From: Thermoplasmata archaeon
Lineage (GTDB): Archaea > Thermoplasmatota > E2 > UBA202 > JdFR-43
Length of the DNA stretch: 64,000 nucleotides
Assembly (NCBI GenBank): GCA_021162065.1
Contig: JAGGZK010000049.1
Span: 11,952-75,951, forward strand
Reading direction: 5' to 3'
Below the pieces are notes generated by a model. That model worked only from the letters and a program-made list of their open reading frames with translations. It did no database searches and was not told where the DNA came from. Every line of letters starts with the position of its first letter. Within the stretch, counting starts at the first letter, position 1. Of this stretch, positions 6,922-60,285 are shown piece after piece. The translations under genes were made by a program, and so were the position numbers.

Positions 6922-6956
6922 GGAGATAATATGTAATGGCTAAATAAAGAATATGC

Positions 6957-39425: not shown

Positions 39426-40270
39426 ACATAGTAGCCACCATTCAGGAAACCCTGGACTATGAGATTGCGGGGATAAAGGTAATTGAGATGATAGAGTTCG
39501 CCGTCATATTCATAATTGCGGTGATAATCGCAAGGATAGCCAGAATGGCCGTGAGACGTCGTTTTAAGGAAAAACTCAGCCCCACAACGCTGAATAACAT
39601 GGAAAAGGTTGTGTATTACGGCATCATCCTCATAGGATTTTTCATAGCCCTGCCCAAGGGTGTTTCCCTGGGCGGCCTGCTGGTGGCGGGGGGCATTGCG
39701 GGCATAGTCATCGGTTTTGCCAGTCAGACGGTGGTCGCCAATCTGATAAGCGGACTGTTTCTCATGGTGGAGAGGCCCGTGGAGATAGGGGATAGCATAG
39801 CCGTGGGGGATGTAAGCGGGGTGGTGAAGGATATAAAGGTGCTCTCCACGACCATAAGGACATGGGACGGCATATATGTGCGCATTCCCAATGAAAAGGT
39901 TTTCAACTCCAATATTTACAACTATGTTGCCCATGGGGCCAGAAGGTTTGAGTACACCATAGGAATCCGTTATTCGGATGATGCCAGCAAGGCAATAGAC
40001 ATAATAAAGGGGATACTGGCGGAGCATCCCCTCGTGCTGAAATACCCTGAGCCGGATGTCTTTGTGAGCGAACTGGGAGAGAGCAGCGTCATCATAGCGG
40101 TGAAGATATGGGCTCCATCAAGCCACTGGTACTCGGTGAAGAAGGAACTTTTATGGAAGATAAAGACCATACTGGAAGAAAATGGAATAGAGATACCCTT
40201 CCCCCAGCGCGTCATATGGATGGCAGGGGGAGAAAAGAAGGAGGGGAGGGGGAAGGGAAAGCAACGTTAA
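39422..40270 (+). CDS. mscS: Small-conductance mechanosensitive channel (MscS family)
   Basis: Three N-terminal TM helices then 'LISGLFLMVERPVEIGDSIAVGDVSGVVKDIKVLSTTIRTWDGIYVRIPNEKVFNSNIYN', the MscS beta-domain signature. Confidence 0.8.
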   Translation: MNIVATIQETLDYEIAGIKVIEMIEFAVIFIIAVIIARIARMAVRRRFKEKLSPTTLNNMEKVVYYGIILIGFFIALPKGVSLGGLLVAGGIAGIVIGFASQTVVANLISGLFLMVERPVEIGDSIAVGDVSGVVKDIKVLSTTIRTWDGIYVRIPNEKVFNSNIYNYVAHGARRFEYTIGIRYSDDASKAIDIIKGILAEHPLVLKYPEPDVFVSELGESSVIIAVKIWAPSSHWYSVKKELLWKIKTILEENGIEIPFPQRVIWMAGGEKKEGRGKGKQR

Positions 40271-40588
40271 ACCGCATGTGCCCGCTTCAGGGCGCTTTAT
40301 TTACATGCGGTTCATCACCTTAATGATAGAACATGTGTGGAGTATATAAGCGGAGGAGGGGGTCTTAACTGCTTATAAACTTTTCGGTTAATTCTACAAA
40401 TTTCGCAAGTAATTCTACTTCTATCCCAACGTTATTCAATTCTAAGTGAAGATTCAATCAACCATTCCAATCAGCAAATAAATATGAAATAAGTTGATGA
40501 ACTCGGAAAAATTTTAAGAAAAGGGAAAATACAGTCCATAAAACATATCAAACAATGGGAATCCTTCCAAATTTTATGCGGTCAATCT

Positions 40589-40607
40589 GTTACTTGGGAA
40601 ATCTGTA
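40589..40607. repeat. 19-bp direct repeat copy 1 (GTTACTTGGGAAATCTGTA)
   Basis: Exact copy also at 41383..41401; the two bracket the gene 40608..41183. Confidence 0.7.
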
Positions 40608-41183
40608 CTAATATTTTACGATGTAATCATTCCCATATAGGGCACCGTTAGGGGCATAGTCCTTGACCAGTTCGCCGAGGGCACTGCTATAAAATCTCAA
40701 AGCTGTCCATGCAAATGTATTTGTGAGCGCATCCCCCGGTTCAGGATTTCCAATAACGCTCTTTGATATTTTCCAGGTAATGGTATCTGTTTCCAAGTCG
40801 AAGGAACATTCACATGGTTCAAGCCCTCCGTAATATTTTCCGGCAAATTGCTGTTCGAAATTTCCTGAAAATTGAGTATGGAAAACTGCCACATACTGGA
40901 TACCATTATACGTCCAGTGAACAGAATATATTGCCCTCAATAATGAACTGTATTCTAAGTTTTTAATTTTTATCGCTGTAAACAAATAATCTGGTTCATT
41001 TGGATCTTCATAAAACCATGCTGAAACAATATCTATATGAGCGAATGATAAAGGTAAAATAGCCAATGGTCCAAACACATCATTTTTTTCATCAACTATT
41101 TCTGGGTCACTAGAAATACATTTACCATTTATTGGAATTAACAACAACCCAATTAATATCAAGCATAAAGCTTTTTTCTTCAT
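40608..41183 (-). CDS. Secreted hypothetical protein (low-GC gene flanked by 19-bp direct repeats)
   Basis: Signal peptide 'MKKKALCLILIGLLLIPINGKC'. No recognisable family. Confidence 0.45.
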   Translation of the reverse strand: MKKKALCLILIGLLLIPINGKCISSDPEIVDEKNDVFGPLAILPLSFAHIDIVSAWFYEDPNEPDYLFTAIKIKNLEYSSLLRAIYSVHWTYNGIQYVAVFHTQFSGNFEQQFAGKYYGGLEPCECSFDLETDTITWKISKSVIGNPEPGDALTNTFAWTALRFYSSALGELVKDYAPNGALYGNDYIVKY

Positions 41184-41382
41184 GTTACTAATAGTTAAAA
41201 TCTTTATAAAAATTTCTTATAGCGCCTGGATAACCGATCTTGAATGAATAGTTTGATTTGCCCCAATATATATTCTACAGATTAAAAAGGTTGGATTTGC
41301 TCATCAAAACTATATGCTACCATTAGCCCTACTTCTCAATCTGAGATTGAATAGTTTATCGTGTGAAGTGTAATAACTATCG

Positions 41383-41401
41383 GTTACTTGGGAAATCTGT
41401 A
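41383..41401. repeat. 19-bp direct repeat copy 2 (GTTACTTGGGAAATCTGTA)
   Basis: Exact match to 40589..40607. Confidence 0.7.
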
Positions 41402-41638
41402 TGGTTATGCTGCAGTACCAGAGAAAGGTTTTAATTTCCCAGGGATATTACAAACGTGGAGAAAAAGATATGTCCCATATGCCATGGAAAGGGATACATA
41501 ATAAATCCCCTGCATACACATTCTGAAAAATTGAAGCCATCCGACAGAACTCCCTATGTGGAAAAGATATGCCCATTTTGCAGGGGGAAGGGAGAGGTGG
41601 CGGTATAAACTTTTAAAATCTCTCCCCCATATAATCTC

Positions 41639-42040
41639 ATGAAGAATTTCTATGATTTGAGGGTAAAGGACGTTATGAACTCATTTGTATGGGATATGCC
41701 CCTCATTGAAAGCGATGCCGACATAAGAACGGTGCTTCTCATAATAATCTCCAGATGTTATGTATGGGTTGTTAAAAGCACAGAAAGCATGGAAATGGTG
41801 GGCGTGATTACAGAGCACGATTTTCTCAAAATGTTCCAGAAGTTTGATCCCGATGCTACCGCAGAGGATTTTGCCACCAAGGATATAATATACTGCACCA
41901 TGGAAGAAAGCGTCGGGGATGTGATGGAAAAAATCAGGAAATATAATGTGAGGCGTCTCCCTGTGCTGGAGAATGGAAAACTGGTGGGGGAGGTGACACT
42001 TCGCAACCTTATAGGAAAATTCTACTCGCTCGTATCCTGA
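41639..42040 (+). CDS. CBS-domain protein
   Basis: 133 aa with two CBS-like halves ('VKDVM...' and 'VGDVMEKIRKYNVRRLPVLENGKLVGEVTLRNLI'). Confidence 0.7.
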   Translation: MKNFYDLRVKDVMNSFVWDMPLIESDADIRTVLLIIISRCYVWVVKSTESMEMVGVITEHDFLKMFQKFDPDATAEDFATKDIIYCTMEESVGDVMEKIRKYNVRRLPVLENGKLVGEVTLRNLIGKFYSLVS

Positions 42041-42444
42041 GATTTTTTTCTCATCTCCGACATAACCTCGCATGCGGCGGCGTAAACTTCATCCACCCCA
42101 TAATCCTCCCTGTGCTTCTTTATGAATTCGTCCATTAACTTTCTCACCGTGGGTCTCTCCATCTTTTTTGCCATCCTTCTAAGGCTTTCCATTATGATTT
42201 CCCTGTTTCTCACGCTGGAGATGTGCTCGTTTATCTCCTTTACAACGGCTATGATTTCAAGTATGGAGAGAAAAAGAACGAAAGAGGCGTTTATGAATAT
42301 GTAGAACTCCTTTTTCTGCCAGGCGAAGATAAATATCTCAAGATCTATGATGAGAACTATAAAGGGAATTATGAGAACTATCTTCTCCAGTTTGCTCGCC
42401 TTGAAAATCTCGCCCATGAAGCTTCTGATGAATCTGTGTCTCAT
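42022..42444 (-). CDS. Hypothetical small membrane protein
   Basis: Two hydrophobic helices in the N-terminal half, charged C-terminal half. Convergent overlap with the CBS gene. Confidence 0.35.
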   Translation of the reverse strand: MRHRFIRSFMGEIFKASKLEKIVLIIPFIVLIIDLEIFIFAWQKKEFYIFINASFVLFLSILEIIAVVKEINEHISSVRNREIIMESLRRMAKKMERPTVRKLMDEFIKKHREDYGVDEVYAAACEVMSEMRKKSQDTSE

Positions 42445-42466
42445 CTAAAATGAATGCTCAAGAAGG

Positions 42467-43048
42467 TTAAAACTCTTTTTCCTCTCCGCTCGCCAGTGCC
42501 AGAAAATGCTCCATGCCTTCCCTTGAGCCGCGGGCAAAAAGTATGTCGCCGCCCTTCAACTCAACATTCTTGCCCGGATCATAAATCCATCGCTCCCCCC
42601 TCTTAATGGCGATTATCCACATCCCTGTCTGGGAGGCGAGTTTTACATCCCCTATTTTCTTATTTGCAAGAACTGAGTTGGGCGAAAGCTCCACCCTCAG
42701 CACCACTTCTTCTGACTCCATCACGCTCTCCTTTATTATGGGGTGGAGTTCCACATCTCTTAGTTCAACATCTGCTATATCCCTGGCGGCATCTGCTATG
42801 GCTTCAGAGCTTGCCCCCAGCTGGATTATGGCCAGCGCCTCATTGACTTCAAGCTCTCCCTTTTTCACATCCTCTATGGCCAGTTTCTGCAACCTCTCAT
42901 TGAGAACGTCTATGAAATTCTCCAGCTGATACACCTCCTCTGCAATGTCCCTGTTGTCATATATGACGGAGGAATATGCCAGGTCAACCATGAGTTCCGC
43001 CTTCTCCTTTAACTCCAGCAGCAATTCCTCCGCTTCCTTTTCACTCAT
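42467..43048 (-). CDS. PhoU-like helical domain + TrkA-C (RCK_C) domain protein
   Basis: Helical N-terminal region then TrkA_C-like 'VVLRVELSPNSVLANKKIGDVKLASQTGMWIIAIKRGERWIYDPG..VELKGGDILFARG'. Start chosen at 'MSEKEAEE'. Confidence 0.55.
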   Translation of the reverse strand: MSEKEAEELLLELKEKAELMVDLAYSSVIYDNRDIAEEVYQLENFIDVLNERLQKLAIEDVKKGELEVNEALAIIQLGASSEAIADAARDIADVELRDVELHPIIKESVMESEEVVLRVELSPNSVLANKKIGDVKLASQTGMWIIAIKRGERWIYDPGKNVELKGGDILFARGSREGMEHFLALASGEEKEF

Positions 43049-43858: not shown

Positions 43859-45193
43859 ATGAAAACAGATGTATTGATAATTGGAGGGGGGCCGGCAGGC
43901 ATAGTGGCTGCCATTACAGCAAGGCAGAACTACCCTGACAAAAGGATTCTTATAGTAAGAAAGGAAAAATATGTGGTTGTACCCTGCGGCATTCCATACA
44001 TATTTGGGACACTGAAAGATGTTGACAAGGATAAAATTTCAGATGGCATCCTTTTGGATAATGAAATTGAGATAATGGTTGATGAGATTGAAAGTGTTGA
44101 CCCCGATAATAAATTGGCAGTGAGCAAAAATCATGGAGAGATTTATTTTGAAAAACTCATTTTAGCCACAGGTTCAAAACCCGTAAAACCACCCATAAAG
44201 GGAATAGAGGGAAATAATATATTTTTTGTAAGGAAGGACCCGGATTACTTAAAAATGTTAATGAAGAAAGTTGAAGAAAGCAATGATGTAATAATCATAG
44301 GCGGTGGTTTCATAGGTGCAGAGTTCGCAGACGAGATAAGAAAATTGGGAAAAGGAGTCACCATAGTCGAAATGCTTCCCCATATTCTTTCCATCTCATT
44401 TGATGAGGAGTTCTGCGAATTGGCTGAACAGGAACTCAGCAGATTGGGGGTGAAGATTCACACAAATTCTAAGGTCGTTGAAATAAGAGAAGATGGAGTT
44501 GTTCTATCCTCTGGAGAGAAATTAAATGGAGATATGATTATTGTCAGTGCAGGAGCCAAGCCAAACATAGAACTGGCGGAAAAAATGGGACTGAAAGTAA
44601 ACAAAAATGGAATCGTGGTTGATGAATACATGCGAACATCTCATCCAGATATTTTTGCAATCGGAGATTGTGCAGAGAAGAGGGATTTTTTCACGAGGAA
44701 AATAAAACCCGTTATGCTTGCCTCTGTGGCCACAGCAGAGGCCAGGATTGCAGGTTCAAATCTATATAAAATTAAAGCCTTCAAGCAACTTAAGGGCACC
44801 ATCGGGATTTTTGTTACCAAAATTGGGGATATCTCAATGGGTGCTGCAGGGCTTATTGAAAGGCAGGCCATAGAAGAGGGCTTTGATTATGTTGTTGGGA
44901 GGAGTGAGGCGGTTGACAAACATCCTGGCTCTCTTCCTGATACAAGAAAAATAAAAGCAAAACTTCTTTTCACAAAACAGGGTGAATTCTTCTTGGGCGG
45001 TCAAATTGCAGGTGGAGATACTGTGGGAGAGCTGATCAATCTCGTGGGTTTTGCCATCGAAAGCGGATATACTGCATCGAGGTATCTGACTCTCCAGATA
45101 GGAACTCATCCTCTATTGACTCCGCCGCCAACGGCACCAGCAACGCTCAAAGCCGTAGAGGATGCTATACTAAAACTACACCATGGAAAATAA
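43859..45193 (+). CDS. NADH oxidase / CoA-disulfide reductase family flavoprotein
   Basis: FAD motif 'DVLIIGGGPAGIVAA', redox-active Cys 'VVVPCGIPY', second Rossmann 'VIIIGGGFIGAEFA', and 'FAIGDCA'. Confidence 0.75.
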   Translation: MKTDVLIIGGGPAGIVAAITARQNYPDKRILIVRKEKYVVVPCGIPYIFGTLKDVDKDKISDGILLDNEIEIMVDEIESVDPDNKLAVSKNHGEIYFEKLILATGSKPVKPPIKGIEGNNIFFVRKDPDYLKMLMKKVEESNDVIIIGGGFIGAEFADEIRKLGKGVTIVEMLPHILSISFDEEFCELAEQELSRLGVKIHTNSKVVEIREDGVVLSSGEKLNGDMIIVSAGAKPNIELAEKMGLKVNKNGIVVDEYMRTSHPDIFAIGDCAEKRDFFTRKIKPVMLASVATAEARIAGSNLYKIKAFKQLKGTIGIFVTKIGDISMGAAGLIERQAIEEGFDYVVGRSEAVDKHPGSLPDTRKIKAKLLFTKQGEFFLGGQIAGGDTVGELINLVGFAIESGYTASRYLTLQIGTHPLLTPPPTAPATLKAVEDAILKLHHGK

Positions 45194-45296
45194 ATTTGGT
45201 AATTTTAAATTTGCAAATTTTTACCTTTTTCTTATTTAAGAAGTTGGTTTTAAAGAAATTGTTAAATACTTTTCCGCAATTCACCAATGATGCCCT

Positions 45297-47559
<2,263 letters not shown>

Positions 47560-47724
47560 TTTTTGAGCGTCCCCTCACTTTTATTTAAAATCCAGAATTA
47601 TAATTTTAGGGCATTCAGTATTATAATTTTGGAAATTCTAATTGATTAAAATGCAAAAATTTACAATTCAACACCTCTCAAATACAAAAAATTTATTATT
47701 AGATATGGCATTAACACGTAAAGT

Positions 47725-48762
47725 GTGATAAATATGGGAGTGAAAATTGCTAAAAACAGAGTAAATGAATTCTTGAAATACCTTAAAGAGGAATACATTC
47801 TTTATGCTCCTGTTGAGGAAAACGGTGTTTCAAAAATTTCTAAGATAGAGGATACATCGGACATAATAAATCTTCCATATAGAACACAAATATCTTTAAA
47901 ACCCATATTTTTCCCCCCTGAACAAAAATTTTTCAGGTTTGAGAAAAAAAATGGAGGAGTTGAGATTGAAGACTATCTTCCGCAGGAAGGTGATGATAAG
48001 AGCATAATCTTCGGCGTGCGTGGTTGCGATGTTAATGCTATTGAGGTTCTGGATAAATATATGTTGGATGAATTTGAGGATCCCTACTACAGGAAAAGGC
48101 GGGAGAATGCTATAATTATAGGCATCTCCTGTGACTATCCAAAAGAATCCTGCTTCTGCACCGCCTTCGGAGGAATGGTGCCAGAGAGATATGATCTCTG
48201 GTTTACAGATATTGGCCCCCATTTCTATGTCGATATTGGCAGTAAGAGAGGGGAAAAATTGATTGATGACAAATTTTTTGAGGAGGCATCTGAAGAAGAT
48301 GAAATGAGAAAAATTCGAAGAATAAACTCCGTAGAAACCAAGATAAATCGGAAAGTGAAAACGAATCTACATGATATAAAAAAATATTATCATAAGATAA
48401 AAAACAGGGCTGATGATTCAATATGGGAAGAACTCGGAAGAAAATGTGTCTCCTGTGGAAAATGCAATTTCATATGTCCCACATGCCACTGCTTTGACGT
48501 GAAAGACATGACAAATATTGACGGCAGTGCTGGAGAAAGAATAAGAGTGTGGGACTCATGTCATCTTTATGATTATGCAAAGACCTCTGCAGAGAATTTC
48601 AGAGAGGAGAGAAAAGCAAGGGTGAGATACAGGATATATGATAAATTTGTTTTTCCGGTTATGAGATACGGTGTCTATGCATGCACTGGATGTGGAAGAT
48701 GTAGTGAGGTTTGTCCTGCCGGAATAGATATCCATGCAGTTGTAAGGAGGTTGATAAAATGA
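47725..48762 (+). CDS. hydB: Cytoplasmic NiFe sulfhydrogenase beta subunit (Fe-S)
   Basis: Cys clusters 'CVSCGKCNFICPTCHCFD' and 'CTGCGRCSEVCPAGI'. First gene of the hydBGDA-like run. Alternative start at 47734. Confidence 0.7.
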   Translation: MINMGVKIAKNRVNEFLKYLKEEYILYAPVEENGVSKISKIEDTSDIINLPYRTQISLKPIFFPPEQKFFRFEKKNGGVEIEDYLPQEGDDKSIIFGVRGCDVNAIEVLDKYMLDEFEDPYYRKRRENAIIIGISCDYPKESCFCTAFGGMVPERYDLWFTDIGPHFYVDIGSKRGEKLIDDKFFEEASEEDEMRKIRRINSVETKINRKVKTNLHDIKKYYHKIKNRADDSIWEELGRKCVSCGKCNFICPTCHCFDVKDMTNIDGSAGERIRVWDSCHLYDYAKTSAENFREERKARVRYRIYDKFVFPVMRYGVYACTGCGRCSEVCPAGIDIHAVVRRLIK

Positions 48763-49574
48763 ATAATCCATATCTTCCTGCTGTAGCCAGAATAACTGAT
48801 ATAATAGAGGAAACCCCAGATACAAAAACTTTTGTTATATCATCGCCCCTCAAATTCAAACCCGGACAGTTTGTGGAACTCAGCATTTTTGGATATGGAG
48901 AGGCACCAATATCAATTTCTGGTGGAAATGAAAAAAGTATAGATTTAACAATAAGAGCTGTGGGAAACATTACAAAAAAGATTCACAGGATGAACGTGGG
49001 AGATTATGTTGGAATAAGAGGGCCCTTTGGCAATGGATGGCCCGTAGAAAGGGCGGAGGGAAGGAATCTCCTCATAGCAGCAGGCGGCATAGGTCTGGCA
49101 CCATTAAAGCCCGTAATCGAGTATGTTTGCAACAACAGAAAAAAGTTCAGGAATGTGACATTGCTCTATGGCGCAAGAAAACCCTCTCTGATGCTTTTCA
49201 AATACAAATTAGAGGAATGGTCAAAACACATGGATGTTCTGTTAACAGTGGACGAGCCAGAAGAAGGTTGGAAAGGGAATGTGGGCGTTGTAACAACACT
49301 TTGTGACAGGATAAAACACGTTTCAGATACTGTAACACTGATGTGTGGCCCACCCATAATGATGAAGTACACATCCATTTCCCTTATGGAACTCGGCTTT
49401 CCAACAGGCGAGATGTATCTATCTCTGGAAAGGAATATGAAATGTGGCATAGGAATATGCGGGCATTGCGCCGTCGGCGGCCTGTATGTTTGCAGAGATG
49501 GCCCTGTATTCTCCCTGAATGACGCCCTTAAACTTATTGAAAAGCCGCACGAGGTGCAGGGGGTGATAGATTGA
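48759..49574 (+). CDS. hydG: NiFe sulfhydrogenase gamma subunit (FAD/NAD(P)-binding, 2Fe-2S)
   Basis: FNR-like 'GQFVELS', 'LLIAAGGIGLAPL', and C-terminal 'CGIGICGHCAVGGLYVCRDGPVF'. ATGA overlap with hydB. Confidence 0.75.
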   Translation: MNNPYLPAVARITDIIEETPDTKTFVISSPLKFKPGQFVELSIFGYGEAPISISGGNEKSIDLTIRAVGNITKKIHRMNVGDYVGIRGPFGNGWPVERAEGRNLLIAAGGIGLAPLKPVIEYVCNNRKKFRNVTLLYGARKPSLMLFKYKLEEWSKHMDVLLTVDEPEEGWKGNVGVVTTLCDRIKHVSDTVTLMCGPPIMMKYTSISLMELGFPTGEMYLSLERNMKCGIGICGHCAVGGLYVCRDGPVFSLNDALKLIEKPHEVQGVID

Positions 49575-50317
49575 ATATAGGCATATTTTCTCTTTCATGC
49601 TGCGAGGGTTGCTCTGTGCAATTTCTCAACTTGGAGGCAAAAATTCTTGAAATTCTTAAATACCTAAATATAAAAAATTTCAGGCTCGCCAAAGAGTACA
49701 ACGAGATGCCCGTAGATATAGCCTTTGTGGAAGGAACACCGACAACAAGAGAAGAGGTACTAAAATTACTTACGATACGAAAGGAGAGTAAAATACTGGT
49801 GGCTCTGGGAACATGTGCCGTCACTGGAGGAGTGCCTGGACTGGTAAACATGATGGCCAAAAAGGAAGCCATGGAGGTTTATGATGGTTTTCCTCCAGAT
49901 GTGCCCATAGATCCCAAACCGTTGGAATACTATGTAAATGTGGACTACAACATTTATGGATGCACCTTCTCAAAAGACGAGTTGATTGAACTCATAACCT
50001 CACTTATTATTGGTAAAGAATACCGGGATAAGGAATACAGCGTGTGTGTGGAATGCTCCCTGCGAGAGAATAACTGTCTCCTTGATGATGGCCATCTATG
50101 TTTGGGGCCCATAACAAGGGGCGGCTGCAAGGCACTCTGCCCAAATAATGGAAAAATGTGCCTTGGTTGCCGCGGCCCATATGAGGATGCCAATATCAAG
50201 GGACATATAAAGATTCTTCAGGATATGGGATTCACCAAAGATGAAATAATAGAGAGTCTTTCCCTTTTTTCATATGAAAAATTTAAGGAGGTTATATCAT
50301 GGCTAAAAGAAGAATAA
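49571..50317 (+). CDS. hydD: NiFe hydrogenase small (delta) subunit
   Basis: 'IGIFSLSCCEGCSVQF' proximal-cluster motif, 'GTCAVTGGVPG', 'CVECSLREN', 'CLGCRGP'. Apparent TTG start overlapping the hydG stop. Confidence 0.8.
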   Translation: MNIGIFSLSCCEGCSVQFLNLEAKILEILKYLNIKNFRLAKEYNEMPVDIAFVEGTPTTREEVLKLLTIRKESKILVALGTCAVTGGVPGLVNMMAKKEAMEVYDGFPPDVPIDPKPLEYYVNVDYNIYGCTFSKDELIELITSLIIGKEYRDKEYSVCVECSLRENNCLLDDGHLCLGPITRGGCKALCPNNGKMCLGCRGPYEDANIKGHIKILQDMGFTKDEIIESLSLFSYEKFKEVISWLKEE

Positions 50318-51564
50318 GCATTAAGGAGATAACAAAAATAGAGGGACATGCCAATCTTAGTGTAGAACTGGAAGATGACAAAATCAGGCGTGTGATATTT
50401 GGTGTTCACGAGGGTTCACGATACTTTGAAGCATTTATGAAAGGGAAAAATTACATGTATATCCATGAGCTGGCAGGTAAAGTGTGTGGGATATGCACCG
50501 TAGCCCATGAACTTGCAAGCATAAAAGCTGTAGAAAATGCCTTGGAGATTGAAGTTCCAGAAAATGTAGAGAGAATAAGAGAGATGATGCTCATAAGCTC
50601 CCACATCCAGAGCCACATTCTCCACCTCTACTTTCTTGCCCTCCCTGATTATGTAAATGCCGAGAGTGCAATAGAGATGGCTGAAAGAGATTATGACCTT
50701 GTCAAAAAGGCATTTCGCATAAAGGAGGCGACAAATTACATGACAGCACTGCTTGGGGGAAGGGAAGTGCAACCCTGCACTCTGGTTCCAGGAGGATTCA
50801 GTAAAAGAATAACCAAGGATGTGATAGAAAGATACATAAAAAAAATGAAAGAAATATATCCCCTTCTGGTGGAAACGGCTGAACTGTTTTCATCTCTCGA
50901 ATACCCACACTTCGAAAGAAAGAGCGATTATGTATCGCTTTACGATGGAAAAAGCATACCTCTCTATAATGGAAAAATAAAAACTCTTCATATGGAATTT
51001 GAAGGCGAGGAATATGAAAAGCATTTTGAGGAATATGTGGTGAATTACTCCTCTGCCAAGAGATCGTTAGTTGGAGGGAGGGATTACATGGTGGGCGCCC
51101 TCGCCAGATTGAATATAAATCCATATCTTAGGGAAGAGGCGAAGGATATCGCCCTCTCCTATTCCATTAAATTCCCCAGCGATAGAGTTGCCTGGATAAA
51201 TGTTGCCCAAGCCATAGAGAATGTGCATTACGCCATAGAAGCCATGGAAATAGCAGATAATGTTAAGGAATATGAGCCGATGCACATTTCTCCCAAAAAT
51301 ATTGATGGAGAAGGAATATCTGCTATTGAAGCGCCCAGAGGATTGCTGATTCACCATTACAAATTTAAGAATGGCAAATGCACCTATGCAAATATAATAA
51401 CTCCCACTGCCATGAATACAGAGAACATCGAAAGGAATCTGGAGGAATACCTTAAAGATATTGCAGGAGAAAGTGACGAAGTCATAAAAAAGGAAGCTGA
51501 GAAGATAATACGGGCTTATGACCCCTGTATTTCCTGTTCTGTACATGTGATCAGGACAAAATAG
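50299..51564 (+). CDS. hydA: NiFe hydrogenase large (alpha) subunit, group 3b-like
   Basis: N-terminal 'KIEGHANL', 'AGKVCGICTVAH' (CxxC Ni ligands), and C-terminal 'DPCISCSVHVI' (DPCxxCxxH). Confidence 0.85.
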   Translation: MAKRRISIKEITKIEGHANLSVELEDDKIRRVIFGVHEGSRYFEAFMKGKNYMYIHELAGKVCGICTVAHELASIKAVENALEIEVPENVERIREMMLISSHIQSHILHLYFLALPDYVNAESAIEMAERDYDLVKKAFRIKEATNYMTALLGGREVQPCTLVPGGFSKRITKDVIERYIKKMKEIYPLLVETAELFSSLEYPHFERKSDYVSLYDGKSIPLYNGKIKTLHMEFEGEEYEKHFEEYVVNYSSAKRSLVGGRDYMVGALARLNINPYLREEAKDIALSYSIKFPSDRVAWINVAQAIENVHYAIEAMEIADNVKEYEPMHISPKNIDGEGISAIEAPRGLLIHHYKFKNGKCTYANIITPTAMNTENIERNLEEYLKDIAGESDEVIKKEAEKIIRAYDPCISCSVHVIRTK

Positions 51565-51683: not shown

Positions 51684-54353
51684 ATGGACAGGAAAAAACT
51701 GGCTATAATGGTTGTATTGGCTCTCTCCCTGCCTATTTTGAGCGGATGTGTGGAAAAATTTAATGAGGTGAGCGGTTTTGATATGGGCACCATAGACGGC
51801 ATAGAGTCAGAAAGAAATGAGGATGCAGTTCCTGTGGTGGTGAGTGAGGAAAATCCCTTCTACGCTCTCATAGCCACCCCCGTGGCTTTATATTATGATG
51901 ACAACGGAAGGCATGTGGAGCCACTCCTCGTGGAAAATTTTGATAATCCATCAAAACCTGTGGAGAGATTCATGGATTTATATCCTGCGCCTTATGAAGA
52001 GATAAGGAGGGGAAGTCCGGAGAATGTTTCCATAGAGATGAGCAGCATATGGAAGAGAAGCGATGCAGCCCTACTTATAGAAAATAATCAGCATGGTTAT
52101 GAGCTCGGAGTGGTGGCAACACCCATAGCCAGCTATCTCAACATACCTGTGTTTGTGACCAACGATACAAACAATGTGAGAAGTGTGTTAAAATCCTTGG
52201 GAGTGAAGTATACATTCGTATGCGGCAATCTCGAGGGGCATGGTCAGACATGGAGATTTGAGAGCGCGGATGAGATAACGGACTTCCTCATAGATTTGGT
52301 GAAGAACAGATTCGGAGGCGTTGACTACATCACCATGACGAATCCGCTGGATGTGACCTCTGTCAACGTTCTTAATGTCACCTCCTATGAATTTGAGAAT
52401 ACCACCGCCTCCGTTGATATACTGCCGGCTCAGACCTTCAACGCCATAATGAATGGCCTCTTCAGTCTGAACTCTTTTGTTATCCCCGAAGATTACAAAT
52501 ATGCCCGCCTCAAGATAGATTTGATAAATGAAAATTCCGAGCACGTGAGTGAGCTGGGCGATGATTTAATTCTTCTGATTTACAGCCCCGATGAGGAAGA
52601 GTATGTGTACACCTCCACCGCCGCCGGCATCCCGGAGGTGGAAAATGGAGATATTGTAACGGATAAGGTGCATTATGAAACGATAATATACAACAAGCCC
52701 GGGAAATATGTGACGGAGGTGCTTGGAAGATGGGTCTCCACACTCAACGGAAAATACAGATTGAAGATAGATGTGGAGGAGGTGGATTCTCCCCTTGAGC
52801 CATTGATGAACAACCTGTCCACCATGGCTCCCTATCTTGCATCATATCATCAGGGCATAGTATTCGCCAAGCCGGAGTTTGCCTTCGCGGGAAATGAGAG
52901 TGTTGGTGTGGAAGGTGTTGTTTATCCATCCACCAATCAGGAACTTGTGGACCCATGCAATGAGCATGTTCTAAAAATCCACGAGCAGCTCAACAACATT
53001 CTGGCGAAGATAGCGGAGATAAATGCAAGCGACACAAAAGCATTATGGGAGCATTACAGAGAGAATCCCATCTACATAGCCATAATGGCAGATCCGACCA
53101 TGGTACCCATGTATTACTACTACAACCCAGATAGCGATAATATAATAGGAGTACAGTTGCCCAGCGACTTCATATATGGAGACATAGATCCCAAACCAAA
53201 CGACATAGAAAATAACTCCTACACCTACTATCCGGAAATGGAGAATGCCGTGGGCAGGGTCACAGGATATGATGCTGAAGACTGCTCCGCCCTCATAGCC
53301 AGAACCGCCTTCTACAACGCCATAATAGACAAATTTGGCAGCTGGAAGAACAATGCGACGGTGCAGACGGGCGCCGGCTTAGAATTCCAGTGGGTCCCGA
53401 TAATTACGCCCCTCACCTCAATGATAACTGGAAGCGAGGAGCCGACGAAATGGCCCAGCGGAGAAAGTTTATTCATAAATCTCCGCCTTTCCCATGATCT
53501 TCAGGAGGCAGGATATAATGTTAGGAGGACTCATTTGCTGGCATCTCAGCGTGAGGGCTTCAAGGATGTGGCGAAATACACATCCCGCCTCAACATTCCG
53601 TTTCCGCACTTCCTGGAGTTCATAAGTGGGGAAAGAGTTGTCAAAGGAGGAGAATATCAGGAGAACAGCAACATCATCTTTGTTTTCAACCATGGAATAT
53701 ACTATCTCTACGAATCTGGAGACGTCCTTCTTGATTCCCGTGGCTTCCCACCCATAACCTGGCTCTCCAGATTTCTTGGACCCCTCGGCATATCGAGCGG
53801 GCTGTCAAGCCATGGAGCATATGCTGTGAGATATGTGGTGAACATGGATATGGGACCGAGCGTCATATTCGTGGAGAGCTGCATTGTGGGAAGAACAGAT
53901 GGACTTATTCCCGAAAACTGTCTCACACAGGCGTATCTACATGCAGGGGTAAATGCCATAGTGGCATCCACCCGTGTGACTGCAGATCCGGGTTATCTTG
54001 AGCCGGGACTGATATTCAAGGGATTCGGAGCAAAGGGATTTGTGAAGGCGCTCTTCAATTTGATCACCAAAGGTGAGTATCCTGACCCACACTTTGGAGC
54101 GGTGGTTGCCAACGACTTCATCCTGGACATAACGCAGAATGATAGCACCGTCGGAATGGCTCTGAGGGATGCAAAGAACATGTATCTCTACAAGGATGCC
54201 AACTCCACATTCCTGTGGACGCCGCCGCTGGAGAATGGATGGACCAATGCAAAATTTGAGGAAGGAAAATTCATGGACAAGAAATATGTGTGCCTGCATG
54301 AGTTCAATCTATATGGGGATCCTGCCTTCAACCCCTACAGCCCGAGTGACTAA
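51684..54353 (+). CDS. Large secreted lipoprotein with C-terminal C25 (gingipain-like) cysteine-peptidase-like domain
   Basis: Signal/lipobox 'LSLPILSGC'. Candidate His 'VFNHGIYY' and Cys 'VIFVESCIVG' spaced as in the caspase-like fold. Paralogous to 55610..57124 in this region. Confidence 0.5.
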   Translation: MDRKKLAIMVVLALSLPILSGCVEKFNEVSGFDMGTIDGIESERNEDAVPVVVSEENPFYALIATPVALYYDDNGRHVEPLLVENFDNPSKPVERFMDLYPAPYEEIRRGSPENVSIEMSSIWKRSDAALLIENNQHGYELGVVATPIASYLNIPVFVTNDTNNVRSVLKSLGVKYTFVCGNLEGHGQTWRFESADEITDFLIDLVKNRFGGVDYITMTNPLDVTSVNVLNVTSYEFENTTASVDILPAQTFNAIMNGLFSLNSFVIPEDYKYARLKIDLINENSEHVSELGDDLILLIYSPDEEEYVYTSTAAGIPEVENGDIVTDKVHYETIIYNKPGKYVTEVLGRWVSTLNGKYRLKIDVEEVDSPLEPLMNNLSTMAPYLASYHQGIVFAKPEFAFAGNESVGVEGVVYPSTNQELVDPCNEHVLKIHEQLNNILAKIAEINASDTKALWEHYRENPIYIAIMADPTMVPMYYYYNPDSDNIIGVQLPSDFIYGDIDPKPNDIENNSYTYYPEMENAVGRVTGYDAEDCSALIARTAFYNAIIDKFGSWKNNATVQTGAGLEFQWVPIITPLTSMITGSEEPTKWPSGESLFINLRLSHDLQEAGYNVRRTHLLASQREGFKDVAKYTSRLNIPFPHFLEFISGERVVKGGEYQENSNIIFVFNHGIYYLYESGDVLLDSRGFPPITWLSRFLGPLGISSGLSSHGAYAVRYVVNMDMGPSVIFVESCIVGRTDGLIPENCLTQAYLHAGVNAIVASTRVTADPGYLEPGLIFKGFGAKGFVKALFNLITKGEYPDPHFGAVVANDFILDITQNDSTVGMALRDAKNMYLYKDANSTFLWTPPLENGWTNAKFEEGKFMDKKYVCLHEFNLYGDPAFNPYSPSD

Positions 54354-55531
54354 CCTCCCTCCTCCCTTTTAATATATCTCCATAGAACTACTGTGGCGAA
54401 GGTGAGTGCAGAAAAAACTGCAGAGAACCCCGGAGATTTTTTATTGTAAACATATATCCGTCTTTCCGCAACGGTATCCCCGTTTCTCACCCGTATAATA
54501 TGTTCCCCATTTCCAAGTTTTTCAGTGTCTATGGCGAAGGACCAGAAAAAGGTTCCATTTGCCCTCTTCCAGGAAGCATTGTCCACCTGCCATTCCACCT
54601 TTCCACCCCCCTCATTCAGTCCCTCCACCTTCACCACACCAGAAACTCTTTCTCCCTCCTTCGGGCAGAATATCACTATCTCCATTTTTGAAGATATATT
54701 CAGGGCATATGGAGAGGATGCGGGACAATGGTCTATGTTATCCCCATAGATTACATATTCCCCGCTTCCATTGTAATCGTCCCAGTAATTCCCTCTTCCG
54801 CCAAAATCCCATCTGTTTTTTTCTCCATACACATAGGCATTCATCTTGTTTTTCATAAAATTATTCATGAAAACATAGTTTTCACTGCTCTTGCAGCACA
54901 TGTGGATGCCCTTCTCATCATTGCCCATTATGCTGTTAAGTTTGATGACATTTTCATAACTTGCCTGTATTTTCATACCTTCCGTATTGTTTTTTATGAT
55001 GTTCCCCGCTATTAAATTCCTGTCGGAATGTTCCAGATACATCCCCCACATGTTTTCGTAGAGTTCATTTTCTTCTACAATATTATCATTTGAAAAATCC
55101 AGGTTTATCCCATAGAACCTATTATCGAATATTTTATTAGAGAGGATGGTGTTGTTATTACCGTCTATCTTCATTCCGTAGGAATTTCCCGCCACCACAC
55201 AATTTTTTATCGTGTTGTTGTCTCCATGAACTTCCATGGCATGATAGGAATTTCTCACTATAAGGTTTTCAAGGGTGACATTGTCTGCATTTATTATTAT
55301 ATCTCCCTCTATCACTCCTCCCTCTCCCCTTAGAGTTATGGATTTGTTTATCTCTGTACCATTGTAAAAACCCTCCTTTATTATTATGATGTCCCCCGGC
55401 GAAGAGGCATCGACCGCGTCCTGAATGCTGGGATAGCCACCATCGCCCACGTAGAGGGTGGAAGCGGAGGAGGATATAAAAAAGATTGAAAGGGCAAAAA
55501 CGGAAAGATATGGAACAAGAATTTTCCTCAT
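54350..55531 (-). CDS. Right-handed parallel beta-helix (NosD/pectate-lyase-like) surface protein with PGF-CTERM archaeosortase sorting signal
   Basis: Signal peptide 'MRKILVPYLSVFALSIFFISSSAS'. Repeated 'N..I..N...G' beta-helix rungs. C-terminus '...SPGFSAVFSALTFATVVLWRYIKREEGG' (PGF + TM + basic tail). Confidence 0.65.
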   Translation of the reverse strand: MRKILVPYLSVFALSIFFISSSASTLYVGDGGYPSIQDAVDASSPGDIIIIKEGFYNGTEINKSITLRGEGGVIEGDIIINADNVTLENLIVRNSYHAMEVHGDNNTIKNCVVAGNSYGMKIDGNNNTILSNKIFDNRFYGINLDFSNDNIVEENELYENMWGMYLEHSDRNLIAGNIIKNNTEGMKIQASYENVIKLNSIMGNDEKGIHMCCKSSENYVFMNNFMKNKMNAYVYGEKNRWDFGGRGNYWDDYNGSGEYVIYGDNIDHCPASSPYALNISSKMEIVIFCPKEGERVSGVVKVEGLNEGGGKVEWQVDNASWKRANGTFFWSFAIDTEKLGNGEHIIRVRNGDTVAERRIYVYNKKSPGFSAVFSALTFATVVLWRYIKREEGG

Positions 55532-55609
55532 GATGATGCATTGCACAGGAGTTTAAAATGTTTCTCCACATCAAAGGTAGTTATTTATATGCCAAAACAT
55601 ATTCTTTCC

Positions 55610-57156: not shown

Positions 57157-57230
57157 GGGCCCGTAGCTTAGCCAGGTGGAGCGCCTGGCTCATAACCAGG
57201 TGGTCGCCGGTTCGAATCCGGCCGGGCCCA
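57157..57230 (+). tRNA. tRNA with anticodon CAU (elongator tRNA-Met, or tRNA-Ile2 if C34 is agmatinylated)
   Basis: Acceptor GGGCCCG/CGGGCCC (G1-C72, so not an initiator), anticodon stem CCTGG/CCAGG with loop CTCATAA, T-arm GCCGG-TTCGAAT-CCGGC, discriminator A. Oligo-T (TTTTTT) immediately 3'. An A/T box 'TTTTTATATT' lies ~25 bp upstream. Confidence 0.85.
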
Positions 57231-57237
57231 TTTTTTA
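57231..57237 (+). terminator. Oligo-T terminator after tRNA-CAU
   Basis: 'TTTTTTA' immediately follows the discriminator base; archaeal RNAP terminates at T-runs. Confidence 0.4.
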
Positions 57238-57309
57238 TGAGTAAGGCCTGTATGAGATACTTATAATTTTAGTGAAAGCAGTTTCCTCTATAAGTTATTT
57301 AAATGATTT

Positions 57310-58890
57310 TCAGTCGAATAATTCTTCAACAGCCATCAGATCAATCTTTATATTATCCTCTAATCTTGCTCGATATGCTTCTTCATATGCCCCTTTAGTA
57401 AAGCTAAACGCCACAATAATCCCTTTCAATATTTTCTTAGTGCTGGGATAATATCTTCTTAAAGCTGTTTCGAAATTATCAACAACATTTCTACCAACAT
57501 TTTCTGATTGTTTTACTTGTATGGGAATACCATCCGAAGTTATACCATCTATCCCCATATCAGCGACCTTTTTGTCGCTGGAAACACCGTTTAATGCCTC
57601 AATGATTCTGTCTTGAAAATCTTGCCAATCCATCTCTTTTAATTTACTTTCTGTTAACACGGCTAACTGGCTAAATTTTTTCTCCTTTAGATCATCCAAC
57701 ACTCTTCTTAATCTCTTGGGATAGGAAAGCATTTTCTCCATTTTTAGTTTTAGATCATCACGCTCACGAGAATATTGCTTTATCCCATAATAACCTCCTC
57801 TTTCTCTAAGTTTCTTAATTTTCTTCATTAAATTATTGATTTGACTTTCTATCTTCTTAATCTCCCTTTCTACACTTGTCAAAAGTTTCCTCACATCCTC
57901 TAAAACTCTAGGGTCTCCTATCTCGCCTAATGCTTCAGCGGCAGCAACTTTTACATCCCAATTTCTATCCTTTAACGCCTCTAAAAGCGGTCTAATCGCT
58001 CTTTTATCATGTGATATTCCTAATTTTAATGCTGCATCCGCACGAATATAATCTTTTTTATTTCCTAACCTAGATATTTCCTTTGTTAAATTAATCTGTC
58101 TCTGCATCATGTGTAAGAGGTTTCTTTTACCATATCTTCTAATTTTATTCCATAAATTATCCCCTAGTCTATCTCTTTGTTTTTTGTCAAGAGTCATACC
58201 ATATATTTTTTTTGATTGAGATATGAACTCCTTCTTCACTTCTTCATCAACATTTGTCCAATCATTTTCATACCTATAAACCAAATATAGCACTTTAAAA
58301 AAATTTTTTTTATTTTGTTCACCAGCCATAAATTTTCCAATTCTCTTTATGACGACTTTTTCTGTGACCTTTTTCCATACTATTTTAGCAAACTTATAAT
58401 CAATTTTTATACCATATGCTCTCTCTAAATGACTTATGAACTCTTCCTCTCCCTGTAAAAAGTTACCGTTACAACTTTCTACAATAGAGAAAAGGGGTTC
58501 GATATTATTATTTTTAATATCACATAAAATTTTTTTCTTAATTCTTTCTCTCTTTTCTTTCCTCTTTTTTTCCTTCTCAATCTTTAATTTTTTCCTTTCC
58601 TTTAGAGTCTCTACAATTTTTTCCCAAGCCCAACGTGCATCGTCAGCATCTATTTTGATGTCCCATCTTTGTTTTATATATTTTTTAAATTTATACTCAA
58701 TATATAGCCCCTGAGTTTCAAATGGCTCTAAAGTTCCTTCCATTACGATCTGTTCAAGATCTCCCCATTTCTTATTCTCTATGTCTTGTTTAAAATTATC
58801 AATCTGCTTTTTTAGTTCTTCTTTTCTTCTTGATCTGGAAAGTAGGCCCATCTTACAATCACCACTTTTGTATACTTTGTAGTATATCAT
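57310..58890 (-). CDS. Fusion protein: N-terminal triplicated ~25-aa module + K/E-rich coiled coil + PBS-lyase HEAT-like repeats + C-terminal Mrr-like PD-(D/E)xK restriction-endonuclease domain; encoded on an AT-rich island
   Basis: HEAT-like 'ADAALKLGISHDKRAIRPLLEALKDRNWDVKVAAAEALGEIGDPRV'. Nuclease core 'VADMGIDGITSDGIPIQVKQSE' (D...D-G...Q-V-K, Mrr_cat-like). The gene is markedly AT-richer than its neighbours and lies directly 3' of a tRNA. Confidence 0.5.
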   Translation of the reverse strand: MIYYKVYKSGDCKMGLLSRSRRKEELKKQIDNFKQDIENKKWGDLEQIVMEGTLEPFETQGLYIEYKFKKYIKQRWDIKIDADDARWAWEKIVETLKERKKLKIEKEKKRKEKRERIKKKILCDIKNNNIEPLFSIVESCNGNFLQGEEEFISHLERAYGIKIDYKFAKIVWKKVTEKVVIKRIGKFMAGEQNKKNFFKVLYLVYRYENDWTNVDEEVKKEFISQSKKIYGMTLDKKQRDRLGDNLWNKIRRYGKRNLLHMMQRQINLTKEISRLGNKKDYIRADAALKLGISHDKRAIRPLLEALKDRNWDVKVAAAEALGEIGDPRVLEDVRKLLTSVEREIKKIESQINNLMKKIKKLRERGGYYGIKQYSRERDDLKLKMEKMLSYPKRLRRVLDDLKEKKFSQLAVLTESKLKEMDWQDFQDRIIEALNGVSSDKKVADMGIDGITSDGIPIQVKQSENVGRNVVDNFETALRRYYPSTKKILKGIIVAFSFTKGAYEEAYRARLEDNIKIDLMAVEELFD

Positions 58891-59082
58891 AACATAATTC
58901 TAATATAAACTCATCGATATATTGTATAAAAACCCTCTCTAAAAAATGTTACTATAGTAAGAGTTTGAATAAAAGACCCACATGAGAATAGGAAAATAAA
59001 CATTTGTATGAGAAGGCAGAGGAAAATTATTCTTATCCATAAAATAAGTCTTAGAGAAAATGCCTCGGACTTTCCCTACTTT

Positions 59083-60285
59083 TCACCCAAATATCACCTT
59101 CTCTGCCTTTTCTGCCACTTTTTCTCTGTACTCTTCGGGGCAGGAAACCATGATGGCCCACTCCGTTATGCCCCTCATCTGAAGGGCGGTGGCCAGTGGC
59201 GTGTAATGGCTGAGAGGATTTATCTCGCTTCCCTCCATCACCTTTATGTCAATCCTCCTTATCCTGGGCTCGGAAAGAAAGATGTCCTTCCCGGGGATAT
59301 CCACTATTATATATTCCTCCGGCACTCCCGTAGCTGCCGAAATCTCCTCCTCCAGCTGTTTCTCATCAGGCAGGGATGCCATCGCCTCCTTTTCCTCTTC
59401 GCTCATCTCCTCCAATCCCATGGCAAAGGCTCTTTTGAACAATCTTCTGTATTTAAGGCGGGAAACCATGTCCCTCTGGTAGCCGCCCATTTCTCTGAGA
59501 TGTGAGAGCAGTTCGCAATCCGTCATGAAGGCAAAATCAAACCTTTCCGCCCTTTCCACCGCCTTTATGAGCATGAGTTCCGCTATCCTCACCGTTTTGT
59601 GGAGATATACGGAGGAATACATCAATGCTCTTGCCACCAGCATGCTTTCAAGTGCACTCACTCCCTTTCTCTCAAAGACGATTTCATCATCGTAAACTTT
59701 CATGGTCTGGATTATTCTGTCCATATCTATAACGCCGTAGGCGACTCCCGTGTAATATGCATCTCTCATGAGATAGTCCATCTGATCCGCATCGAGAGGA
59801 CCATGTATTATCTGCGAAGCAACCTCCTTTTTCCCTTCAAGTATTTCCAAAATTTCCCTCGCATCCATTCCATGTTCAGAAAGAATTTCCTTTATGGTTT
59901 TTCCCCCTTTATAGTCCTCAAGCCTCCTCTCCCCACTTATTATTTCCTTCGTTATCTCCACATGATTTTTTCCCTCCCTGGAATGCATCAGATATTCCAG
60001 AGTGTGGGAAAAGGGTCCGTGGCCTATATCATGAAGAAGAGCAGCAACAGCAACAACATCTTCCTCCATATCCAGAGCATGGGCCATCTCCCGGGCAACG
60101 TGAGACACGCCAAGAGAGTGCTCCATTCTTGTATGATTCGCTCCCGGATAAACAAGATAAGCAAACCCCAGTTGCTTTATCCCATGCAATCTCTGCATCT
60201 CCGGAGATTCGATGAGGTCAACGAATACCCCCTCGAACCTCAGATTTCCGTATATAGAATCCCTGATGTATTTCACATTCTCCAT
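59083..60285 (-). CDS. HD-domain phosphohydrolase (dGTPase/dNTP triphosphohydrolase-like superfamily)
   Basis: 'RMEHSLGVSHVAR....AALLHDIGHGPFSH' is the canonical HD motif. 400 aa. Confidence 0.7.
   Translation of the reverse strand: MENVKYIRDSIYGNLRFEGVFVDLIESPEMQRLHGIKQLGFAYLVYPGANHTRMEHSLGVSHVAREMAHALDMEEDVVAVAALLHDIGHGPFSHTLEYLMHSREGKNHVEITKEIISGERRLEDYKGGKTIKEILSEHGMDAREILEILEGKKEVASQIIHGPLDADQMDYLMRDAYYTGVAYGVIDMDRIIQTMKVYDDEIVFERKGVSALESMLVARALMYSSVYLHKTVRIAELMLIKAVERAERFDFAFMTDCELLSHLREMGGYQRDMVSRLKYRRLFKRAFAMGLEEMSEEEKEAMASLPDEKQLEEEISAATGVPEEYIIVDIPGKDIFLSEPRIRRIDIKVMEGSEINPLSHYTPLATALQMRGITEWAIMVSCPEEYREKVAEKAEKVIFG

Follow-up and report, generated by a model that had tools for sequence, protein, structure and literature searches.

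The locus and its composition

The window, that is, the whole stretch of 64,000 nucleotides (nt) of Thermoplasmata archaeon DNA analysed here, carries an AT-rich islet at 57231-59082 (1852 nt) that begins 1 nt past a gene for a transfer RNA, tRNA-Met. The islet holds one intact gene, called here the HEAT-Mrr gene, whose product joins HEAT repeats to a C-terminal domain of the Mrr nuclease family, and the decayed end of a ParE/RelE-type toxin gene (Table 1). The tRNA gene was recognized by ARAGORN and Rfam alike, in agreement with an initial annotation of this DNA, which had placed a tRNA-CAU at the edge of the islet. The G1-C72 pair of this CAU tRNA excludes an archaeal initiator, whereas elongator Met and Ile2 are not told apart by ARAGORN and Rfam. 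The sequence of the tRNA-Met gene is identical in the window and in a related locus (L008), and we read its 3' end as the proximal boundary of a variable slot and the landmark for integration. The distal edge of this slot is the stop codon of an HD-domain protein gene. The HEAT-Mrr open reading frame (ORF) points with its 3' end to the 3' end of the tRNA gene, across a gap of 79 nt, and its start lies 192 nt from the HD stop codon.

The guanine-plus-cytosine content (GC) of the islet is 0.316, against 0.459 for the whole window, and the islet is the global minimum among 1580-nt sliding windows (mean 0.458, standard deviation (sd) 0.035); equally low values were found in 0.6% of these, every one of which overlaps the islet. 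In a 300-nt profile the GC falls from 0.48 to 0.27-0.36 right past the tRNA and is back to 0.47-0.52 at the HD gene, which bears out the abrupt drop between the tRNA 3' end and the next gene that the initial annotation had described by eye. The comparison of GC at third codon positions (GC3) was carried out with the 45 ORFs of the window of at least 200 amino acids (aa), HEAT-Mrr included. The HEAT-Mrr gene has the lowest GC3 of all (0.283 vs a mean of 0.536, sd 0.071, for the 44 other ORFs; z -3.6), and its GC at first and second codon positions (GC1 and GC2) is the lowest as well. The encoded protein contains 15% Lys and is rich in Glu, Ile and Leu; because GC3 is also the lowest of the 45, the drop is not merely that of a Lys/Glu/Ile-rich protein. 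By GC and codon analysis, the check proposed together with the annotation, the gene is the compositional outlier of the window.

Table 1. Features of the islet and of its borders, in window coordinates
Feature	Position	Strand	Basis
tRNA-Met (anticodon CAU/CAT)	57157-57230	+	ARAGORN; Rfam RF00005, 70.3 bits
tRNA-proximal spacer, 79 nt	57231-57309		first ~10-17 nt like the tRNA trailer of L008; remainder unique
HEAT-Mrr gene, longest ORF 526 aa	57310-58890	-	ORF call; GC 0.323, GC3 0.283
Mrr-family PD-(D/E)xK domain, aa ~413-526	57313-57654	-	Pfam, motifs, AlphaFold2 (AF2)
Long helical coiled-coil-like linker, aa ~327-417	57640-57912	-	AF2 helices 327-364, 367-387 and 389-417, pLDDT mostly 83-96
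Two PBS-lyase-type HEAT repeats, aa 274-342	57865-58071	-	Pfam
N-terminal region, three ~55-60-aa helical modules	58117-58776	-	internal repeats; matches no known family
Putative TATA-like box (TTTATATT on the minus strand)	58902-58909	-	read from the sequence
Decayed 3' end of a ParE/RelE-type toxin gene	58981-59063	+	alignment to the L008/L075 toxin gene
HD-domain protein gene (HD + HD_assoc_2), conserved distal flank	59083-60285	-	Pfam; orthologs in L074 and L008

The same slot in related archaea

The closest relatives of the HD protein are found in metagenome-assembled genomes (MAGs) of Thermoplasmata/Thermoplasmatota, and the gene order PKD protein, HD, tRNA-Met, C25 peptidase, NosD-like, C25 peptidase is kept in two relatives. 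The distant HD-gene loci L009-L012 and L076-L080 have no tRNA beside the HD gene and were therefore left out of the slot comparison. In the first relative, L074, the HD protein is 94% and the C25 peptidase 83% identical to that of the window, with flanking DNA 85-90% identical, and the HD stop codon is separated from the tRNA 3' end by 160 nt (GC 0.38) that show no similarity to the islet. The window loses its homology to L074 at 57231 and regains it at 59082; with L074 and L008 taken together, the two breaks fall at 57231-57240 and at 59081-59082. In L008 and L075, with an HD protein 79% identical, the slot measures 761 nt (GC ~0.30) and carries a gene for an 88-aa ParE toxin (L008 3212-3478; Pfam ParE_toxin, 31.5 bits vs a cut-off of 23), overlapping an upstream ORF of 59-74 aa in the usual layout of type II toxin-antitoxin pairs. 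The three related lineages thus each show the slot in a different state. Presence or absence at the tRNA was the comparison proposed from the window alone; an empty site in L074, together with an alternative cargo in L008/L075, favours insertion.

The window also keeps a trace of the ParE cassette, located between the HEAT-Mrr and HD genes, frameshifted and with its stop codon lost. Its DNA aligns locally to the toxin gene of L008/L075, at the 3' end of that gene, with a score of 43 (z 7.4) that 1 of 1000 shuffles equalled; the two were also aligned with MAFFT, and the translated remnant (...RKIILIHKISLRENA) was aligned by BLASTP with the L008 toxin (...ERIILIHRIGFRKDA) at 8/19 identical and 15/19 positive positions (E 2e-4). 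Scanned alone, the remnant has no Pfam match, the fragment being too short. By these alignments we regard it as orthologous to the intact toxin of the L008/L075 slot. Since the window keeps a remnant of a cassette that is still intact in the outgroup L008, the ParE cassette would be the older occupant; its place on the HD side implies that the HEAT-Mrr gene arrived tRNA-proximal to the older cargo, and its state that a later deletion took the antitoxin and about two thirds of the toxin. The same deletion would explain why the window lacks a distal copy of an attachment site (att). In this way the remnant would serve as a molecular fossil that gives the order of events at the slot. The description of the HEAT-Mrr gene as the sole cargo consequently holds for intact genes and has to be amended for the islet as a whole, in which the remnant is also present.

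Two further observations concern the surroundings of the slot. The 17 nt at window 57231-57247 (TTTTTTATGAGTAAGG) resemble those just 3' of the tRNA in L008 (TTTATTATGAATGAAA), despite the different cargo, and are unlike those of L074 (TGAATTTCTTCTTTGG); the similar stretch after the tRNA in the window and L008 (~17 nt) may go back to an old junction that both share, act as a tRNA terminator or be due to chance. In addition, a NosD/beta-helix gene that lies two genes from the islet (window 54350-55546, minus strand; L074 3698-4897) is only 55% identical between the window and L074, vs 83-94% for its neighbours, and is AT-rich in L074 (GC 0.27-0.33). In this neighbourhood it appears to be a second locus that evolves fast or has been replaced.

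Architecture of the HEAT-Mrr protein

Although the longest ORF encodes 526 aa, translation probably starts at M14 (58851), which would give a protein of 513 aa. This start is favoured because the homologs P0002-P0004 begin at the M14-equivalent MGL..., and a Shine-Dalgarno-like hexamer, GGTGAT, is found 6 nt upstream of the M14 ATG. The position of the putative TATA-like box would likewise lead to transcripts starting near or after M1, and so favours M14.

The three N-terminal helical modules follow a consensus of roughly F..(Y/W)GIK(I/L)D...A...W.K(I/V), and their similarity to each other exceeds that of shuffled sequences (R1-R2, z 6.7, 0/1000 shuffles; R2-R3, z 5.0, 2/1000 shuffles). The N-terminal 270 aa have no Pfam or NCBIfam match, and only 4 relatives were found among 1.84 billion representatives, all of them family members or fragments of these; in the AF2 model the region is all-helical, with a predicted local distance difference test (pLDDT) score of 84-93. 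The central part was assigned in a Pfam scan of the full-length protein to HEAT_2 (aa 274-342; E 1.1e-11, 45.3 bits vs a cut-off of 27.7) and to HEAT_PBS (E 1.7e-8, 34.6 bits vs a cut-off of 20.9). It matches alphaRep and MTH187 in a sequence search of the PDB, and alphaRep by Foldseek also. The AF2 model of the full protein, built on an alignment of 12 family members (pLDDT 80.9), is all-helical to residue ~417, with the C-terminal domain poorly resolved.

This last domain was identified with the Mrr_cat profile (PF04471), which covers it over 111 of its 115 positions (E 1.7e-7, 31.8 bits vs a cut-off of 21) when the C-terminal 128 aa are scanned alone; Mrr_cat is not reported when the full-length protein is scanned, and precomputed Pfam labels it 'weak' in homologs. 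In the Mrr family, motif I is F-E, motif II has an Asp four residues before the catalytic Asp, linked to it through a Gly, and motif III is Q-x-K (PMC2790908). Motif II of the HEAT-Mrr protein is D444-M-G446-I-D448 and motif III is Q458-V-K460; D444, G446 and D448, as well as the Gln and Lys of motif III, are invariant in an alignment of 92 domain sequences, of which ~11 are members of the HEAT-Mrr family. The profile match above threshold and the two Mrr-specific motifs agree with the initial annotation, which had described a single 526-aa ORF ending in a PD-(D/E)xK core of the Mrr type and had suggested a profile search of its C-terminus as a check. Built on the 92-sequence alignment, the AF2 model of the C-terminal 132 aa (pLDDT 84.6, predicted template modelling score 0.78) has its elements in the order alpha-beta-beta-beta-alpha-beta. 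Its best Foldseek matches in the PDB are NucS/EndoMS, FokI, MspJI and LlaBIII (4xqk), all with weak scores (E 7e-3 to 0.3, template modelling score ~0.5), and a sequence search of the PDB with this domain found no match to a solved structure. The catalytic block is strongly conserved, with up to 85% DNA identity between loci.

Outside the family, the domain has its nearest relatives in the C-terminal extensions found on beta-class N6/N4 DNA methyltransferases, encoded both by cells and on viral contigs; with these extensions it has 45-60% identity over ~110 aa and the block GDMGIDG...PIQVKQS..VGRNVVDNFETA in common. No description of a methyltransferase–Mrr_cat fusion was found in the literature searched. 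On IMG/VR viral contigs, N6/N4 methyltransferases with an Mrr_cat-like C-terminus were observed at L150 4814-6061 and at L153 20-1462.

The HEAT-Mrr family and its other loci

A search of 5.8 billion protein clusters found about a dozen proteins of the same overall architecture, at 31-58% identity, all of them from metagenomes or MAGs. One member carries a name, 'HEAT repeat domain-containing protein [Thermoplasmata archaeon]'. The homologs are located at unrelated chromosomal positions amid housekeeping genes, each solitary, and no methyltransferase, integrase or conserved partner gene lies beside any homolog locus inspected. The host genomes of P0004 and P0003 have a GC of 0.33 and a GC3 of ~0.25, and the gene itself has 0.31 and 0.23-0.25, so that its composition there is native. 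The window gene keeps this low-GC signature in a 46%-GC genome, which is consistent with acquisition from such a lineage. The host of P0004 co-occurs with the window organism in JGI sample 3300017593.

From the same sample comes an independent assembly of the window organism (L001; 99.92% identity over 10,474 nt), whose contig breaks off within the HEAT-Mrr gene (L001 position 1 corresponds to window 58199), and most HEAT-Mrr homologs stand on contigs shorter than 2.5 kb. The break in L001 and the short contigs of the homologs may reflect strain-level heterogeneity or low coverage of AT-rich islets. An exact-sequence look-up of the 526-aa protein found no contig on record. In one homolog, P0006 (745 aa, on an ENA contig of 2593 nt), the Mrr domain breaks after ...KKLLEG and is followed by DDE transposase-like sequence (PF01609/PF13751); this fusion may be an insertion of an insertion sequence into the nuclease domain or an assembly chimera.

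An att-like signature was found at the locus of P0003 (L005), on a contig of 33% GC. An exact 16-mer, AAATGGGCCCGGCCGG, occurs there twice, at 7659-7674 and 10833-10848 (3174 nt apart), with 0.00 such repeats expected by chance (200 shuffles). At the second copy, the 16 nt are made up of the last 13 nt of a minus-strand tRNA gene and a TTT trailer; this gene is cut by the contig end, and its visible 28 nt differ from the window tRNA-Met at one position. The two copies bracket 3.2 kb with P0003, whose 3' end points to the tRNA as in the window, and two small ORFs on the minus strand (9832-10194 and 10245-10658) that belong to no known family, their weak DUF5677 and TPR matches being below threshold. 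By eye, no terminal inverted repeats were seen at the ends of this element. The arrangement is that of classic attL/attR sites or, alternatively, of a 16-nt target-site duplication. A homolog bracketed by an exact repeat of a tRNA 3' end supports the earlier suggestion that the islet is a decayed integrated element. P0004 (L002 7221-8720), in turn, lies 282 nt 3' of a tRNA-Val(GAC) gene (6866-6938) in three independent assemblies (L002, L003, L004), in the orientation to the tRNA opposite to that in the window and L005, and with no flanking direct repeat detected. Equally, no att-type repeat was found around the cargo of L008 or at the tRNA-Val in L002 or L004.

Three of the four homolog loci with usable flanks therefore adjoin tRNA genes: that of the window (tRNA-Met), that of P0003 in L005 and that of P0004 (tRNA-Val). 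On a rough estimate, ~5% of archaeal genes picked at random have a tRNA gene within 300 nt, which would make three of four unlikely by chance.

Other compositional features of the window

Two other parts of the window also stand out in composition. A run of seven genes on the plus strand, at 43859-51564, has a GC3 of 0.35-0.44, vs 0.48-0.62 elsewhere in the window, and its part from 47726 onward corresponds to hydrogenase-like genes on L001 (NiFeSe_Hases, Oxidored_q6, NAD_binding_1/DHODB_Fe-S_bind); this run may be a second compositionally atypical block. The second-lowest GC stretch, ~0.37 over 1.6 kb, is found at ~40270-42470 and contains small ORFs only, among them one for a 191-aa protein with a signal-peptide-like N-terminus (40608-41183, minus strand) and one of 133 aa (41639-42040, plus strand).

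Origin and function of the islet

With moderate confidence, we read the islet as horizontally acquired DNA, most likely a decayed small element that integrated at the 3' end of tRNA-Met(CAU) and whose surviving gene encodes a Type IV-like defence nuclease. Horizontal acquisition, as proposed in the initial annotation, is supported by the foreign composition, the empty site of L074 and the alternative cargo of L008/L075. The Type IV-like defence reading is based on the intact ORF, the conserved catalytic block, the solitary state of the gene and a slot that otherwise hosts an addiction module. We infer the mechanism of integration in this genome, as well as the nuclease activity, the substrate and the role of the gene in defence or addiction.

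The course of events may be pictured as follows. The element would have come from a low-GC (~33%) archaeal lineage in which the composition of the gene is native. At its insertion the slot would already have held an older ParE-type toxin-antitoxin cassette, and the element would have come to lie between that cassette and the tRNA. A later deletion would have removed the distal att copy, any other genes of the element, the antitoxin and most of the toxin, so that one intact gene would survive, for a helical, HEAT and coiled-coil-like protein ending in an Mrr nuclease domain. This protein would act alone as a Type IV-like defence nuclease, with no methylase required: its helical N-terminus, with the HEAT repeats, would serve to recognize the target or for regulation, its long helices would give the dimerisation that the PD-(D/E)xK domain needs for cutting both strands, and its D-x-G-I-D / Q-x-K site would cleave invading DNA.

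A number of results weigh against this account. The downstream duplication of the tRNA 3' end for which a search had been suggested was not borne out: 22-mer and 16-mer searches at up to 3 mismatches, a repeat finder and Smith-Waterman comparison with shuffled sequences found no duplicate above chance anywhere in the window. No integrase ORF was found in the islet or elsewhere in the window, so that in this genome the islet shows neither of two defining features of integrative elements, an att repeat and an integrase. A 9-nt repeat (TATGAGTAA) flanking the tRNA was considered and rejected: the C25 peptidase ORF ends in its upstream copy, L074 does not have the repeat, and its occurrence is near chance expectation. 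The likeness of the window to L008 over the first ~17 nt fits poorly with a fresh recombination junction at the tRNA end. At L005, neither an integrase nor an integrase fragment is present in the 3.2-kb element and no ORF spans the repeat, the 16-nt repeat could be a target-site duplication instead of an att core, and the tRNA, whose anticodon lies beyond the contig end, only appears to be the one of the window. The closest homologs are 53-56% identical to the window protein, so that they pinpoint no actual donor, and the family was found neither in phage and plasmid collections (tblastn) nor full-length on viral contigs, where only the methyltransferase-fused C-terminal domain was matched; PHROGs gave nothing meaningful. 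As to function, the search of PADLOC-DB 2.0 gave no curated defence system and nothing beyond a weak match of the HEAT repeats to HEAT-ARM_XIII (19.8 bits), motif I of the protein is F425-Q426, with Gln where Mrr and LlaGI have Glu, and in the methyltransferase fusions the Mrr-like domain might be only a DNA-binding module. That the islet ORFs include no methylase, which the initial annotation had correctly listed beside the missing integrase and attachment-site duplication, does not point to decay: enzymes of the Mrr type are by nature solitary, and so are all the homologs.

Other explanations have to be weighed against the decayed element, of which one dispenses with site-specific integration. 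The slot could be a hot spot at which cassettes are exchanged with DNA taken up from relatives, through either illegitimate recombination or homologous recombination in the conserved flanks, the adjacency to a tRNA being incidental. We consider this unlikely, even if three lineages with three slot contents and breakpoints exactly at the conserved flanks, a window without att repeat or integrase, and a divergent NosD-like neighbour, AT-rich in L074 and suggestive of a plastic region, speak for it; a clean, flank-mediated replacement would have left no truncated ParE remnant on the HD side, the 16-nt tRNA-end repeat of L005 and the tRNA-Val beside P0004 point to tRNA-directed insertion, and the composition of the gene fits a low-GC lineage that would not share the flanks. 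Much less probable still is an ancestral HEAT-Mrr gene at the slot, lost in L074 and L008, whose AT-richness would simply follow from its Lys/Glu/Ile-rich sequence. Such a protein does lower GC1 and GC2, but GC3, which is largely independent of the amino acids, is an outlier too; moreover, homologs are found at unrelated loci in other genomes, the ParE remnant makes the toxin-antitoxin cassette and not the HEAT-Mrr gene the older occupant, and the spacer of L074 has no trace of the gene. We regard this as very improbable indeed. It is a long shot, finally, that the HEAT-Mrr nuclease is itself the mobility function of a minimal integrase-less element, cutting the 3' ends of tRNA genes and so driving its own insertion, which could be homing-like or proceed through a staggered cut that yields the 16-nt duplication of L005. 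Three of four loci adjacent to tRNA genes, no integrase with any copy and a solitary family are consistent with it.

For the product of the decayed element, the alternative to a defence nuclease is that its Mrr-like domain is a catalytically weakened DNA-binding module, which would make the protein a scaffold associated with chromatin or DNA, or else a selfish toxin/addiction gene with no role but its own retention. In motif I the Phe is conserved, but at least 90% of the subfamily have Gln in the place of the Glu, with F-E kept by short-form homologs; the closest relatives of the domain (50-60% identity) are appendages of N6/N4 methyltransferases, some of them viral, the other known cargo of the slot is a ParE module of the addiction type, and no curated defence system was matched. 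Mutants of LlaGI, in which both motif II Asp residues and the motif III Lys are critical while the motif I Glu (E38A) and motif III Gln mutants are partly active (PMC2790908), speak to the contrary: the critical residues are invariant here, and the motif I deviation alone does not exclude catalysis, given the partial activity of E38A. The conservation of the domain between loci furthermore indicates purifying selection. We accordingly hold a non-nuclease product to be improbable, and take the domain for a member of the Mrr family with a deviant motif I, for which the motifs and the model make catalysis plausible.

A decayed islet integrated at a tRNA gene and a Type IV-like restriction gene are both known kinds. 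What is new at this locus is the domain architecture, the rarity of the family, the record of serial replacement at the slot and an integrase-less mini-element with a 16-nt tRNA-end repeat. The locus represents a compact, well-bounded case of the turnover of small defence/addiction genes at a tRNA-adjacent slot in uncultured Thermoplasmata, with a previously undescribed Mrr-family architecture that, if active, would be a new recognition module for Type IV-like restriction. Activity would also shed light on the widespread Mrr-like domain fused to cellular and viral N6/N4 methyltransferases, and the 3.2-kb element of L005 raises the question of what mobilises archaeal mini-elements.

Comparison with known systems

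The closest parallel to the locus as a whole is provided by archaeal elements that integrate into tRNA genes, such as those with 'suicidal' integrases of the SSV type (PMC7253208). The islet is like them in its site at a tRNA 3' end, its foreign composition and its absence from close relatives, and the L005 locus in having the tRNA 3' end directly repeated at its far boundary. It is unlike them in that no integrase is present in the window or in L005, the repeat is of 16 nt only and the window has no copy of it. ParE/RelE cassettes, which are intact in the L008/L075 slot, are represented in the window by a dead copy, separate from the HEAT-Mrr gene.

At the level of the protein, the Type ISP enzymes LlaGI and LlaBIII share the three-motif signature of the Mrr family, and LlaBIII is among the fold matches; they are, however, helicase-methyltransferase-target recognition domain (TRD) fusions of more than 1500 aa, and the HEAT-Mrr protein has no ATPase, methyltransferase or TRD. 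In the N6/N4 methyltransferases of PF01555, the Mrr_cat-like domain follows a complete beta-class methyltransferase, whereas the HEAT-Mrr protein has the HEAT/helical region in that place and no methyltransferase nearby. E. coli Mrr, a Type IV modification-dependent restriction endonuclease, has the same Mrr_cat domain, with motif II D-x-G-h-D and motif III Q-x-K; as is stated of Mrr in PMC3152355, the HEAT-Mrr gene is solitary, with no cognate methylase, and laterally acquired. Strictly taken, the HEAT-Mrr protein nevertheless falls outside the E. coli Mrr type. Its motif I is F-Q where that of E. coli Mrr is F-E, and in place of the Mrr_N winged helix, to which nothing in aa 1-270 corresponds by Pfam or NCBIfam, its N-terminal part is composed of three novel helical modules, two PBS-type HEAT repeats and a coiled-coil-like linker of ~90 aa.

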